DNA of 47,096 nt from a virus (IMGVR_UViG_2802429246_000002), one strand, 5' to 3'. Numbered from the stretch's first letter, positions 6,692 through 41,776 are shown. Numbers and translations: made by a program. Notes: generated by a model from the sequence alone, not told the origin.

Positions 6692-6708
6692 ATTACCTTT
6701 CAGGTAAT
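6692..6708. promoter_or_regulatory. 17-bp inverted repeat attacct-ttc-aggtaat (operator-like site A)
   Basis: Exact 7-bp arms, reverse complements of each other; member of a family of at least 13 sites. Confidence 0.6.
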
Positions 6709-6744
6709 TTGCAAAACGTGCTGGATAGCAAACAAATTATTTGC

Positions 6745-6764
6745 TACTGTATAAATATACAGTT
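6745..6764. promoter_or_regulatory. Putative LexA (SOS) box TACTGTATAAATATACAGTT
   Basis: CTGT-N8-ACAG with AT-rich spacer, near-consensus, about 20 bp upstream of the ATG at 6784 with GGAG RBS in between. Confidence 0.7.
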
Positions 6765-6783
6765 ATTGCATGGAGAAGATAAG

Positions 6784-7041
6784 ATGCAGCAGTATCACTA
6801 TCCACTGGAAGACGGATTTACCGAAAGGATTCACACGCCGGGAGGCGTCAGATCACTGGTGGAGGGATCGCACTTGATGAAATTACTCCGGGATCTCGAT
6901 AAGGATGGATTTAATGTCGATGGCCCACTTGCCGAACTGACTGCACTGATTAACTACGTCACCAGCTCACAGATGTCTATGCAGGATCTGCAAACACATC
7001 TCGACTATTGTGCCGAACAATTACGAAAACAAACCCGGTAA
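6784..7041 (+). CDS. Small antirepressor-like protein (homolog of the C-terminal domain of the antirepressor at 8190..8885)
   Basis: 85 aa from MQQYHYPLEDGF; aligns with C-terminus of the 8190 ORF (Y..PL..G...IH.P.GV..L.E.S.LM.LL..L..DG..V.G..AELT); LexA box upstream. Confidence 0.6.
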   Translation: MQQYHYPLEDGFTERIHTPGGVRSLVEGSHLMKLLRDLDKDGFNVDGPLAELTALINYVTSSQMSMQDLQTHLDYCAEQLRKQTR

Positions 7042-7063
7042 ATTTAAAGGCCGCAAGAGCGGC

Positions 7064-7792
7064 CTATCGTTTCGCTTTGTGCTCGTCCCAGCACGTTTTG
7101 CACCATGCCATTAAGCCGTCCGCATTTTGATTATTAGGGTAAAAGCTGGTTCGTTTTCTGCGGACATTACAAATTGGGCACCACTTCATATGACGTGTAT
7201 TCTTTGGGCCATCGAGACACCTTGCACACCACTTAGTCAATCCATCTGGATTTTTTGACGATTTCCTGAATTTTTCATATGGAAGGTTTATTCTGCATCG
7301 CAAGCACTGCTTGCTACCGCTTGAAACTCTGTTAGCTGATTCTTCTTTTGGCGGCGATACAGAAGATATTCTTGCTGGCTCTGATACTGCCTGAGGTGCT
7401 TTTTTAAATGACTGAGACGATATGTCATCACCAGGGAATCTTCCATGATATGCCGGACGCGTTGACACTCCAGGTGGAAGCTCAGCTGTAAACGGCTTTG
7501 GCTGAATCAGTTGCCTCTCTTTTGCTAACTCCTGCTGTTTATAATATGTCTGGATTACCGCACTATCATAAGCAGGAGGTGCGGAAATATTAGGCGCATT
7601 ACCTCCAGTTTTTTGAAACTGAGTAGAGGTGTGTTCTATCACCTGTGTACGATTAATCGTTATCTCCCCATCTTCGGTCTTTATCGTTTTGTTATGATTA
7701 ACGACCGTACGATCAGAGATCTTAGTCTTGTTCTGGTTGATAACGTAAATAATCACCGTAACCACACCAACAACTATCCAGAAAACTTCCAT
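7064..7792 (-). CDS. Membrane-anchored protein with Pro-rich linker and tandem C-terminal zinc-ribbon repeats
   Basis: N-terminal TM helix; two repeats of C-x2-C-x(13-17)-DGL-x2-WC-x2-C; GAGGAA RBS; operator-like site 20 bp upstream. Confidence 0.6.
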   Translation of the reverse strand: MEVFWIVVGVVTVIIYVINQNKTKISDRTVVNHNKTIKTEDGEITINRTQVIEHTSTQFQKTGGNAPNISAPPAYDSAVIQTYYKQQELAKERQLIQPKPFTAELPPGVSTRPAYHGRFPGDDISSQSFKKAPQAVSEPARISSVSPPKEESANRVSSGSKQCLRCRINLPYEKFRKSSKNPDGLTKWCARCLDGPKNTRHMKWCPICNVRRKRTSFYPNNQNADGLMAWCKTCWDEHKAKR

Positions 7793-7811
7793 TGCTTTTC
7801 CTCACAATAAC

Positions 7812-7828
7812 ATTACCTTAAAGGTAAT
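7812..7828. promoter_or_regulatory. 17-bp inverted repeat attacct-taa-aggtaat (site B)
   Basis: Exact arms; about 20 bp upstream of the minus-strand gene starting at 7792. Confidence 0.6.
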
Positions 7829-39221: not shown

Positions 39222-39330
39222 GTGTGCTGCTAAGGCACTGGAGCAAATGGTCAGGATGGTACTTATTCCTGGCCTCTGTTTCAGCATGGCTTTATCTGCT
39301 GGCATTAATTTTCAGAGAGGGTTGGATTAA

Positions 39331-39630
39331 GTGAAAAAGTTAAGCCGACTTGAAAAATATCACATGAACAAGGTTTCAATGCGCAGTCCGTCAAAGATTG
39401 TCGCCGTTACTCCTGCGGCGATAGAGATCGAAAAACGCGCGATTGAAAGAGAGAAAAAAGGGCAGTTCCGCATTGCCGCTCACCTTTGGCTTCAGTGTAT
39501 GGATGTTGCTTCTGGTGATGTTGAGCGTGCGAGGATCGCGGTTCGCAGGGACCAATGTATCACAAAAGGTAACGGCCTTCGCCGTGGCGACTATAGCGGC
39601 ATAGGATGTTGTGGGGTGGTTTATGACTAA
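39331..39630 (+). CDS. PerC/Pch-family transcriptional regulator-like protein
   Basis: Segment AIEREKKGQFRIAAHLWLQCMDVASGDVERARIAVRRDQCITK parallels the PerC-family core as recalled; GTG start. Confidence 0.45.
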   Translation: MKKLSRLEKYHMNKVSMRSPSKIVAVTPAAIEIEKRAIEREKKGQFRIAAHLWLQCMDVASGDVERARIAVRRDQCITKGNGLRRGDYSGIGCCGVVYD

Positions 39631-40273
39631 GAAATACACACTAATCTATGCAGATCCACCCTGGGTATACCGGGACAAAGCCGCAGATGGTAATCGCGGT
39701 GCCGGTTTTAAATATCCGGTTATGAGTGTGCTGGACATCTGCCGCCTTCCTGTGTGGGATTTGGCCGATGAAAACTGTCTGTTGGCCATGTGGTGGGTGC
39801 CAACACAACCACTCGAAGCACTAAAAGTTGTTGAAGCCTGGGGATTCCGTCTGATGACCATGAAGGGATTCACGTGGATAAAATGTGGTAGTCGACAACC
39901 AGATAAACTGGTTATGGGTATGGGACACATGACTCGCGCCAATAGTGAAGATTGCCTGTTTGCGGTAAAGGGAAAACTACCTCCGCGCATTAATGCAGGT
40001 ATCGTTCAGTCATTTACCGCACCGCGGCTTGAGCATTCAAGAAAACCAGATATTGTTCGTGAAAAACTTGTGCAATTGTTAGGCGATGTTTCTCGCATTG
40101 AACTGTTCGCCCGCCAGACGTCTCATGGCTTCGATGTTTGGGGTAATCAGTGCGAAGACCCGGCAGTGCAACTACACCCTGGATACGCGTTGGATATTGC
40201 CGGATTAACAAATGCATTCAGCAATGCTCCGCTGTCACCAACAGACAACCAGGGGCGGGAGCGTGCAGCATGA
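39623..40273 (+). CDS. DNA N6-adenine methyltransferase, MT-A70-like (orphan)
   Basis: N-terminal LIYADPPW motif (DPPW catalytic motif); no adjacent restriction endonuclease gene. Confidence 0.7.
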   Translation: MTKKYTLIYADPPWVYRDKAADGNRGAGFKYPVMSVLDICRLPVWDLADENCLLAMWWVPTQPLEALKVVEAWGFRLMTMKGFTWIKCGSRQPDKLVMGMGHMTRANSEDCLFAVKGKLPPRINAGIVQSFTAPRLEHSRKPDIVREKLVQLLGDVSRIELFARQTSHGFDVWGNQCEDPAVQLHPGYALDIAGLTNAFSNAPLSPTDNQGRERAA

Positions 40274-40464
40274 ACAGGGCATCACCAGCAGATTTAAGGA
40301 AATGCCTTGAAACTGCAAACATGCTTGCACACAGCGGGATCAGGTTTGTTCCAATTCCCGCTGTCACTGATGCTGAATTTGCAACGCTGTCAGCAATATT
40401 CGCAGACAAAATTGAATCACTGGCAGCAGAAGCCGAGATGGAAGAAAATCAGCAGAACTATTAA
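40270..40464 (+). CDS. Hypothetical small protein
   Basis: 64 aa from MNRASPADLRKCL; ATGA overlap with methyltransferase stop. Confidence 0.4.
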   Translation: MNRASPADLRKCLETANMLAHSGIRFVPIPAVTDAEFATLSAIFADKIESLAAEAEMEENQQNY

Positions 40465-40467
40465 ACG

Positions 40468-41718
40468 TTATTCTCCCGCCATCCACTTCTCAAACTTCGA
40501 CGGGGAGAACGGAATCAAATCCGTATGCTCCCCGTTAATCCAGGAATCAATCATATCGGCCCACTGCTGCAACATGTAGGCGCGCTGTCTGGCGTATTCC
40601 GCTTTGTTATATACGGCGCGCACACTTTTCTGCTCATGTGCCAGGGCCTTTTCAATCCAGTCTGAAGGATAACCAGCCTCATGCAACAACGTACTGGCTG
40701 TACGGCGCATATCGTGTACGGTGAAGTCCTGAATATGCTCACCATCTTCATTTATTATTTTCACCGTTCTGTCGATCAGAGAGTTCAGCGCGGCATTAGA
40801 TAATGGCTTCCGGAAGTTGTAACGACCAGGAACCAGATATTCACTTCCACCAGCGCACATCTGCAACCCGACCAATATATCCTGTGCCTGTTTAGGCAGG
40901 TAAATAACGTGCGCCCGGCTTCCCTTCATGCGGTCTGAAGGAATTGTCCATGTCCATTTTTTAAAATCTATTTCATCCCACGTTGCATTGGTGAATTCGC
41001 CTTTACGAACCATGGTGATAAGCACCAGCTTTAAAGCCATTTTCATAGTGCCCATAGCACCAATGGCATCCAGCGTGCGGAAGAACAGGCCAACTTCTTC
41101 TGGTGTCAGTGTTCGCTCTCGTGGTTTAAATATGGCGATAGACGAAGGTTTAATGTCAGCCGCAGGATTAAACAAACCATGACCACGGTCATTGGCGTGA
41201 CGGTATACGCTGCTGATGATCTCCCTGGCCTGCACTGCTGTTGCCCGGCCACCGCGTTCGACAATCCGGTCACACAAATCACGAACCATCGATGTGGTAA
41301 TTTCAGCCATCATTTTGTTGCCAAGAACCGGAAGTATGTCACGGTCGATCACTGCCTTCTTCATTGCGCGGGTACTTTCAGCAAGGATGACGTGTTTCAT
41401 ATAACTGTCGGTATGTACCGTAAACGTCTCGGCACCACGAATCTTTTTGATACCGTCACGTTTAGCCGCAGCCGGTGACTGGCCTGCTTTAAGCAGCTTT
41501 TTTGCAGCAATCAGTTCTTCCCGCGCTTCTGCCAGGCTGATACCGTCACGCCCATACTGCCCGATTACCAGTGTTTCGCGGCGACCGTTGATACGGTAGT
41601 CATAGCGAAATGAGACCGTACCTGACGTAAGCACAGCTACATACAGCCCGTCACGATCGGAGACTTTGTACAGTTTGTCCTGCGGCTTGAGGTTTTTTAA
41701 TTTTGTATCGGTAAGCAC
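40468..41718 (-). CDS. int: Tyrosine integrase (P4-type)
   Basis: 416 aa; N-terminal arm-binding region LYVAVLTSGTVSFRYDYRINGRR and C-terminal catalytic region (HDMRRT...; conserved Y near C-terminus) typical of P4-family integrases; adjacent to attR. Confidence 0.85.
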   Translation of the reverse strand: MLTDTKLKNLKPQDKLYKVSDRDGLYVAVLTSGTVSFRYDYRINGRRETLVIGQYGRDGISLAEAREELIAAKKLLKAGQSPAAAKRDGIKKIRGAETFTVHTDSYMKHVILAESTRAMKKAVIDRDILPVLGNKMMAEITTSMVRDLCDRIVERGGRATAVQAREIISSVYRHANDRGHGLFNPAADIKPSSIAIFKPRERTLTPEEVGLFFRTLDAIGAMGTMKMALKLVLITMVRKGEFTNATWDEIDFKKWTWTIPSDRMKGSRAHVIYLPKQAQDILVGLQMCAGGSEYLVPGRYNFRKPLSNAALNSLIDRTVKIINEDGEHIQDFTVHDMRRTASTLLHEAGYPSDWIEKALAHEQKSVRAVYNKAEYARQRAYMLQQWADMIDSWINGEHTDLIPFSPSKFEKWMAGE

Positions 41719-41759
41719 AATTCACCCGTATAGAAACCATTTTCATGACGGTATGAGAG

Positions 41760-41776
41760 TATACCTTTAAGGTAAT
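41760..41776. promoter_or_regulatory. 17-bp inverted repeat tatacct-tta-aggtaat (site I) between integrase start and attR
   Basis: Same motif family with one mismatch in the left arm. Confidence 0.5.

Follow-up and report, generated by a model that had tools for sequence, protein, structure and literature searches.

In phage epsilon15, a member of the genus Uetakevirus, the RefSeq record (NC_004775.2) carries seven features annotated as 'protein_bind / repressor / lysogeny', and all of them are perfect copies of the palindrome ATTACC-N5-GGTAAT. They are dispersed over the genome, being located before terS, before gp3, in the gap between gp19 (ant) and the tail fibre gene, at the left operator region (OL; three sites) and before gp43. 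Kropinski et al. (2007) reportedly gave the consensus as ATTACCWDWWNGGTAAT, and the seven epsilon15 sequences fit that string exactly. In this work we analyzed a 47,096-nucleotide stretch of viral DNA (IMGVR_UViG_2802429246_000002, hereafter the window), which holds a phiV10/epsilon15-like podovirus prophage of the same genus integrated at the 3' end of guaA, and studied a 17-bp palindrome of this type that recurs in it. Judging from sequence comparison, this palindrome is almost certainly the binding site of the main prophage repressor, Rep, and is found at nearly every phage promoter.

The Rep protein of the related phage SPC32H binds palindromic DNA as a tetramer, in which two pairs of DNA-binding domains lie about 100 Å apart (secondary sources: PMC9638917, PMC9986798). 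Overexpression of the repressor of phage ZX5, which is identical to the Rep of the window, removed free phage and decreased the holin and endolysin mRNA by more than 99.9%; no operator was mapped in that study (PMC9782041). Both the motif and its dispersed layout are already known for Uetakevirus, and the novelty is low, since epsilon15 already has these sites annotated and a crystal structure exists for the repressor family. What is added here is a full map of 17 sites in a phiV10-type prophage, a 62-bp rule for paired sites, the selection acting on the arms, and slots combining an operator with cargo genes. The map is useful as annotation, as phiV10-type prophages are very common in E. coli and their public records list no operators.

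Distribution of the palindrome in the window

The exact pattern TTACCT-N3-AGGTAA was found at five sites of the window (0.00 expected). With up to two mismatches, ATTACCT-N3-AGGTAAT matched 12 sites against 0.10 expected, and the core with 6-bp arms, ATTACC-N5-GGTAAT, matched 17 against 1.29 expected. Thus the palindrome, described in an earlier note made from this DNA alone, is real and strongly enriched. A similar density in unrelated E. coli DNA, which would speak against a phage operator, was not revealed: the 7-bp-arm pattern had no matches in 150 kb of E. coli K-12 versus 12 in the 40.5-kb prophage, and the core at up to one mismatch had two versus 12. Two core matches, one in the host flank (1247) and one in coding DNA (14615), were treated as probably due to chance. 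The final tally for the window is 15 strong and two weak sites, every one of them in non-coding DNA, and 11 of the 17 fall outside the immunity region (35.5-36.7 kb). In a set of 84 sites drawn from six genomes, the ACC at positions 4-6 hardly varies, and the central base is A or T.

Ten of the 12 sites listed in the earlier note were recovered with no more than 2/14 mismatches (6692, 7812, 7905, 8951, 26647, 27264, 35519, 35904, 36616, 41760); one of these had been placed at 35518, one position off. The site at 36678 holds only as the 6-bp-arm core (1/12 mismatches) and not with 7-bp arms, and that at 35887 has a good left half-site but a degenerate right arm (4/12 mismatches). Five sites had been missed (29983, 30001, 33555, 33617, 35856). 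The placement relative to genes stood for the right operator region (OR), OL, the antirepressors, the cargo genes, both sides of the tRNA and the gap between int and attR. It failed for the distance to the small antirepressor gene, said to be 20-40 bp: the ATG at 6784 lies 75 nt past the site, with a LexA box in between. The 17 sites are the following.

6692..6708: intergenic region between ant and the tail fibre gene; abuts the -35 (TTGCAA) of the predicted ant promoter; orthologous to epsilon15 19895-19911, annotated as repressor-binding
7812..7828: 19 nt upstream of the ATG of a 242-aa zinc-ribbon cargo gene (7064-7792, minus strand)
7905..7921: overlaps the -10 of a predicted promoter TTGATT-18-TATCAT (7877-7906) reading into isrK, C4 and the Bro-N antirepressor gene
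8951..8967: overlaps a -10-like TAATAT, ahead of a cargo operon (8993-9202 and 9202-10068)
26647..26663: separates the head operon (gp3 start 26557, minus strand) from the tRNA region; overlaps the -10 of a predicted rightward promoter TTGACA-17-TACCTT; orthologous to epsilon15 2931-2947, annotated as repressor-binding
27264..27280: exact TTACCT-N3-AGGTAA, past two terminators and 32 nt before a cargo gene (27312-27917)
29983..29999: second site of the terS tandem, ending 1 nt before the terS ATG (29981, minus strand)
30001..30017: first site of the terS tandem, past a terminator and abutted by a predicted extended -10, TGgTACTAT; orthologous to epsilon15 11-27, annotated as repressor-binding
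33555..33571: 62 bp downstream of the next site; covers the ribosome-binding site of the DUF1064 gene (ATG 33552, minus strand)
33617..33633: fills the spacer of a predicted minus-strand promoter TTGATA-16-CAAAAT
35519..35535: past the cro terminator, ahead of the gp40-like and replication genes; orthologues at phiV10 33111 and Tyrion 35364
35856..35872: weak OR site, TTCACCCATAAGGTAAC, with 3/12 mismatches; overlaps the predicted leftward cro promoter at its -35 and spacer; orthologous to epsilon15 33387
35887..35903: OR site, GTTACCTATGAGGTGCA, matching the position of the middle epsilon15 OR site (33357)
35904..35920: OR site closest to rep, TTTACCTGTTGGGTAAT
36616..36632: OL site, ATTACCTTATGGGTAAT, directly past the rep terminator (36580-36599) and upstream of the -35 of the promoter PL
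36678..36694: OL site, ATTACCCCAACGGTAAC, 62 bp from 36616; overlaps the -10 and +1 of PL
41760..41776: imperfect copy, TATACC...GGTAAT, 42 nt upstream of the int start (41718, minus strand), in the arm of the phage attachment site (attP) beside an arm-type site of the integrase (Int)

Conservation of the sites and their relation to Rep

Two divergent regulatory genes adjoin the OR sites.

35975..36559, plus strand: rep, 194-aa prophage repressor with an N-terminal helix-turn-helix (HTH) domain followed by dimerisation and tetramerisation domains
35590..35820, minus strand: cro-like gene, divergent from rep, matching phrog_35 (transcriptional repressor, E 5.6e-13); homologue of phiV10p41 and epsilon15 gp39

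Over its full length, Rep is homologous to SPC32H Rep (PDB 5D50, E 4e-42, residues 1-190), its only solved relative. It is 100% identical to phiV10p40 and ZX5 ORF21 and 42% identical to the repressors of epsilon15 and SPC32H. An alignment of five Reps, which share 43-78% identity with that of the window, showed no change in the recognition helix N36-L-V-N-R-W41 or in the residues on either side of it in the N-terminal HTH, and this constancy explains the invariant half-site. A search of IMG/VR with Rep returned identical Reps only, in at least 80 contigs.

De novo ranking of hyphenated palindromes put the motif first in the window, epsilon15, SPC32H, phiV10 and Tyrion. Six phage genomes contain 14-18 copies each at orthologous positions, including the terS tandem, the gp3/tRNA and ant/tail fibre gaps, int, the OL pair, the OR triple, the site past the cro terminator and the pair at the DUF1064/RuvC gene. 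Details of the layout are kept as well: the OR spacing (17 + 30/31 bp) is shared by the window and epsilon15, the PL/OL layout of the window is also present in L090 and L092, and the int site has the same imperfect arm (GGTATA) in all six genomes. In epsilon15, 16 of the 18 matches fall in the intergenic 6.6% of the genome (P ~2e-17). Outside this group, Rep homologues of 52-60% identity, encoded by an E. coli guaA prophage and by a Serratia prophage with a different attachment site, have the helices NLVSRW or NLISRW and still use TTACC-N5-GGTAA at OR, OL, terS and the RuvC gene. This palindrome ranked first in every case where a Rep homologue was present, the Serratia prophage included. The binding of a Rep-type repressor to exactly these sites is taken from the GenBank annotation and secondary citations, and for the window we infer that Rep is the binder.

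A broader statement can be made only tentatively, with rather less than even confidence: Rep homologues of 42-100% identity from Escherichia, Salmonella, Klebsiella, Enterobacter and Serratia may all keep one helix, one operator code and the promoter-clamping 62-bp pair. If so, their prophages would form a single cross-immunity group.

Selection on the arms and alternative functions of the motif

In 71 distinct immunity-region haplotypes obtained from IMG/VR contigs, variable positions numbered 6 of 72 in the arms, mostly as singletons, versus 15 of 30 in the spacers and 93 of 353 elsewhere in intergenic DNA (Fisher P = 8e-6 for arms versus spacers and 6e-4 for arms versus other intergenic positions). 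Hence purifying selection acts on the arms but not on the spacers. The earlier note gave an RNA-level role, as a hairpin in 5' untranslated regions, as an alternative; such a hairpin, of 6-7 bp, might hide the ribosome-binding site or be a processing site. The folding energies of the motif hairpins do range from -3 to -8 kcal/mol, and the lowest z-score is -3.3. At 33555, 29983 and 8951 the ribosome-binding site is met by the right arm or the spacer, and in the epsilon15 record the copy nearest int is crossed by an annotated RNase III site. However, among 78 arm-pair changes in the 84 sites, 67 are one-sided and break the pairing, 6 allow G:U and only 2 are compensated, which argues against a hairpin. 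Besides, it is the identity of the bases A4 C5 C6 that is kept rather than their pairing, the stems are weak and AU-rich, and several sites located in promoter spacers or upstream of the -35 would not be transcribed. We therefore regard an RNA-level role as extremely improbable.

If the motif is bound as DNA, the main binder could be another phage protein, either the Cro-like product of 35590-35820 or a gp49-like regulator. The Cro-like protein matches a family of transcriptional repressors and is encoded next to the OR sites, and in lambda-type switches Cro shares the operators of CI. Yet the sites are credited to the repressor in the epsilon15 record, the half-site stays conserved along with the Rep helix over 42-100% Rep identity, and sharing by Cro would supplement the binding of Rep, not substitute for it; a main binder other than Rep is very unlikely. 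The motif might also be a promoter element in itself, with its internal TACCTT serving RNA polymerase as a -10 and no repressor involved. Consensus-like -35 hexamers are indeed found 17 nt upstream of TACCTT at 26647 and 7812, and at five other promoters the -10 ends in the first two bases of the operator. Such overlap is what a repressor site should show, and a promoter element leaves unexplained the strict two-fold symmetry, the 62-bp upstream partners and the sites upstream of the -35, so that the probability of this reading is close to negligible. The proposal of the earlier note that the motif is the operator of the prophage repressor is well supported by the epsilon15 annotation, the homology of Rep and its invariant helix, the orthology of the sites, the selection on the arms, the uncompensated changes and the overlap with promoters.

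Overlap with predicted promoters and a model of repression

Most of the sites coincide in part with a predicted sigma-70 promoter, namely with its -10, its spacer or its -35. Four promoters were found by consensus scan: PL (36651-36679), P7905 (7877-7906), a minus-strand promoter at 33639-33612 and the minus-strand cro promoter at 35874-35846. Four other, tentative ones were picked out by eye: TAATAT before 8951, TGgTACTAT before 30001, TTGACA-17-TACCTT at 26647 and TTGATC-17-TACCTT at 7812 (minus strand). The element before 30001 is conserved in five genomes and the TTGACA at 26647 in six. At P7905 the operator begins at the last two bases of the -10. PL is located between the two OL sites.

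36651..36679, plus strand: predicted PL promoter, TTGACA-17-AATCAT, 10/12 match to the consensus

Operators also occur as pairs 62 bp apart from centre to centre. Such pairs were found 11 times in the six genomes, at two different loci per genome, and the orthologues of the 33555/33617 pair keep this distance in all six.

The whole set of observations is very probably best explained by a palindrome serving as the operator of an SPC32H-type Rep, with repression by dispersed promoter occlusion and with induction mediated by Ant. Rep would be a non-cleavable repressor. Terminators would divide the prophage into many short transcription units, almost each of which would open with a sigma-70-type promoter and at least one operator; these putative units comprise PL, cro/rep, replication, DUF1064-to-terS, terS, the tRNA with cargo, three cargo slots, both antirepressor genes and int. 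Three modes of occlusion can be proposed, with the operator covering the end of the -10 (its last two bases) together with the start site, filling the spacer between -35 and -10, or abutting the -35. Since the operators sit on core promoter elements, the simplest mechanism is that bound Rep would exclude RNA polymerase. The 62-bp pairs (about six helical turns) flank promoters, and a single Rep tetramer could hold both sites at once. We consider such bridging of a pair around a promoter a reasonable model, and the pairs offer a clean layout for how a tetrameric repressor may close a promoter.

Several points weigh against this explanation. The promoters are consensus predictions, and several were picked by eye. 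Three operators lie 28-40 bp upstream of a separate conserved late-type element, not on it, so that occlusion does not readily account for the silencing of the late genes. At int, the operator partly coincides with an Int arm-type site and with a possible stem-loop, and the Cro-like protein may share the OR sites.

The late-type motif, C(A/T)TAT(G/A)TGGTT, is located on the minus strand at 6653-6663, 26596-26606 and 33576-33586, 20-45 bp downstream of an operator, and is followed about 10 nt later by a -10-like hexamer. It precedes the tail fibre gene, gp3 (head operon) and the DUF1064 gene, as well as the lysis cassette in relatives. With up to one mismatch it had 2-7 matches per genome, mostly on the late-gene strand, and two in the 150 kb of K-12. 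At two mismatches AACCACATATG was not enriched (18 versus 14.5 expected), and only its copies with no more than one mismatch on the late-gene strand are meaningful. Having no -35, the motif may be an activator-dependent late promoter element.

Induction and antirepressors

Two antirepressor genes were revealed, both with an operator upstream.

6784..7041, plus strand: ant, small antirepressor, 88% identical to SPC32H Ant (start inferred)
6745..6763: perfect LexA (SOS) box, TACTGTATAAATATACAGT, between operator 6692 and ant
8190..8885, plus strand: antirepressor combining a Bro-N domain with a C-terminal domain similar to the small Ant (Pfam Bro-N; phrog_130 and phrog_450)

All six genomes compared have kept the LexA box upstream of ant. 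The small Ant and residues 148-229 of the Bro-N protein both match phrog_450; therefore, the prophage encodes two antirepressors with one common domain. Induction would proceed through Ant, whose gene would be held off jointly by LexA and Rep, and a second route may be provided by the Bro-N-Ant fusion antirepressor encoded behind an RNA leader.

This leader of about 270 nt, between operator 7905 and the Bro-N gene, contains the Hfq-binding small RNA isrK (7957-8032, plus strand, Rfam 77.9 bits), the C4 antisense RNA (8057-8142, plus strand, Rfam 77.7 bits) and a terminator-like hairpin (8013-8026). Its layout resembles the immI module of P1, which is controlled by C1, and the isrK module of Gifsy-1.

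Cargo genes and operator slots

Operators are located ahead of four cargo units: 7812 before the 242-aa zinc-ribbon gene, 8951 before a pair encoding 69-aa and 288-aa proteins, 27264 before a 201-aa gene and 26647 before tRNA-Arg. The zinc-ribbon gene (7064-7792) matches phrog_6762 and gene 27312-27917 matches phrog_4780; a PADLOC search of the cargo genes detected no defence system.

The tRNA-Arg(UCU) gene lies at 26985-27061 and is followed by terminators at 27105-27140 and 27225-27240. The promoter whose -10 lies inside operator 26647 (region 26619-27240) points from the head genes toward tRNA-Arg, and this phage tRNA may be under repressor control.

The slot past the Bro-N gene (8886-10120 in the window, 1500-2400 in L094 and 1500-2300 in L095) is an exchange point for cargo, where the flanks and the operator on the -10 are kept. 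In TL-2011b it contains a gene for a YafO-family toxin and in phiv142-3 small open reading frames, and the operator on a -10-like TACTAT is retained. That the slot keeps its operator despite different cargo supports a single regulator over the cargo. This agrees with the view of the earlier note that one regulator governs both cargo genes and antirepressors, as the cargo and both antirepressor genes carry a site. The map points to the cargo genes that are probably not expressed in the lysogen and come on upon induction. If the Rep code is shared as tentatively proposed above, cargo behind such a 'landing-pad' operator, including the YafO toxin of TL-2011b, would be on only upon inactivation of Rep.

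Boundaries of the prophage and annotation of related genomes

The early region of the prophage is 96-98% identical to those of vB_EcoP_ZX5, TL-2011b and phiV10. The core of the right attachment site (attR), ATTGAGTGGGAATGATT, is located at 41909-41925, guaA at 41911-43488, and a degenerate left site (attL) near 1383-1400. To the left of the latter, at 160-1236, we found a gene for a glycine-zipper / TraT-like lipoprotein and a DUF5384 gene. TL-2011b aligned from position 5 of the window; therefore, its record extends beyond this attL.

In the region 41750-41790 the int operator abuts GGTGACGGTAT, and TATACCGTCACC, the reverse complement of part of it, was found by eye near attL (1460-1485). 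In the epsilon15 record an integrase-binding site stands beside the copy equivalent to the int operator. Thus, Rep and Int may compete or cooperate in the attP arm.

It should be mentioned that in phiV10 (NC_007804.2) the annotated start of terS (41-715) at position 41 places both terS operators (86 and 104) inside the coding sequence. When phiV10 is aligned with epsilon15, Tyrion and the window, the true ATG seems to lie just past the second operator.

Comparison with known systems

The earlier note had compared the dispersed sites with those of mycobacteriophage L5 and phage P1. L5 stoperators are asymmetric 13-bp sites, oriented with transcription inside the units, where they block elongation. 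The window resembles L5 in having many copies of one repressor site (bound by gp71 in L5) across the genome, but its sites are two-fold symmetric, intergenic and located at predicted promoters, as are 16 of the 18 epsilon15 sites in being intergenic. The stoperator analogy was therefore abandoned.

In P1, about 17 dispersed C1 operators and the immI module (c4-icd-ant) are known; the operators are asymmetric 17-bp sequences bound by the C1 monomer. As in P1, one repressor would control many scattered operons, including an antirepressor operon with C4, and the presence of the C4 antisense RNA between operator 7905 and the Bro-N gene makes the analogy closer than the earlier note had it. It extends to layout and function only: the window motif is symmetric and Rep is unrelated to C1, so these are not P1-type C1 operators.

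Phage lambda is not known to have operators outside OL and OR, and its late genes need an antitermination cascade. The 17-bp two-fold symmetric operators, the OR triple between divergent cro and repressor genes, the multiple OL sites and the oligomeric repressor are features in common with lambda CI; the position of 11 of the 17 sites outside the immunity region distinguishes the window from a switch confined to OL and OR, as the earlier note had stated. In addition, CI undergoes cleavage with RecA, while it is Ant that inactivates Rep-type repressors (PMC9782041; reportedly also Kim and Ryu 2013). Among other mobile elements, the IncP plasmid RP4 has the global repressors KorA/KorB, whose symmetric operators recur at many of its promoters and which repress cooperatively (PMC2665229). 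This is a plasmid system with unrelated proteins and other operators.

The closest likeness is to the Salmonella phages epsilon15/SPC32H, with their gp38/Rep repressor and LexA-controlled antirepressor Ant, which belong to the same genus and share with the window the ATTACC-N5-GGTAAT consensus, a homologous Rep, the LexA box before ant and the dispersal of sites over terS, gp3, ant/tail fibre, OL, OR, the RuvC/DUF1064 gene and int. The differences concern the overall identity of the Reps (just 42%), position 7 of the site, where T is preferred in the window and A or T is found in epsilon15, and the extra operators of the window at three cargo slots and at the isrK/C4/Bro-N module, which epsilon15 does not have. 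The window has no site before the lysis genes, because there is no moron there. Each testable defining feature of the epsilon15/SPC32H Rep-operator system was found in the window, which is a member of this system.

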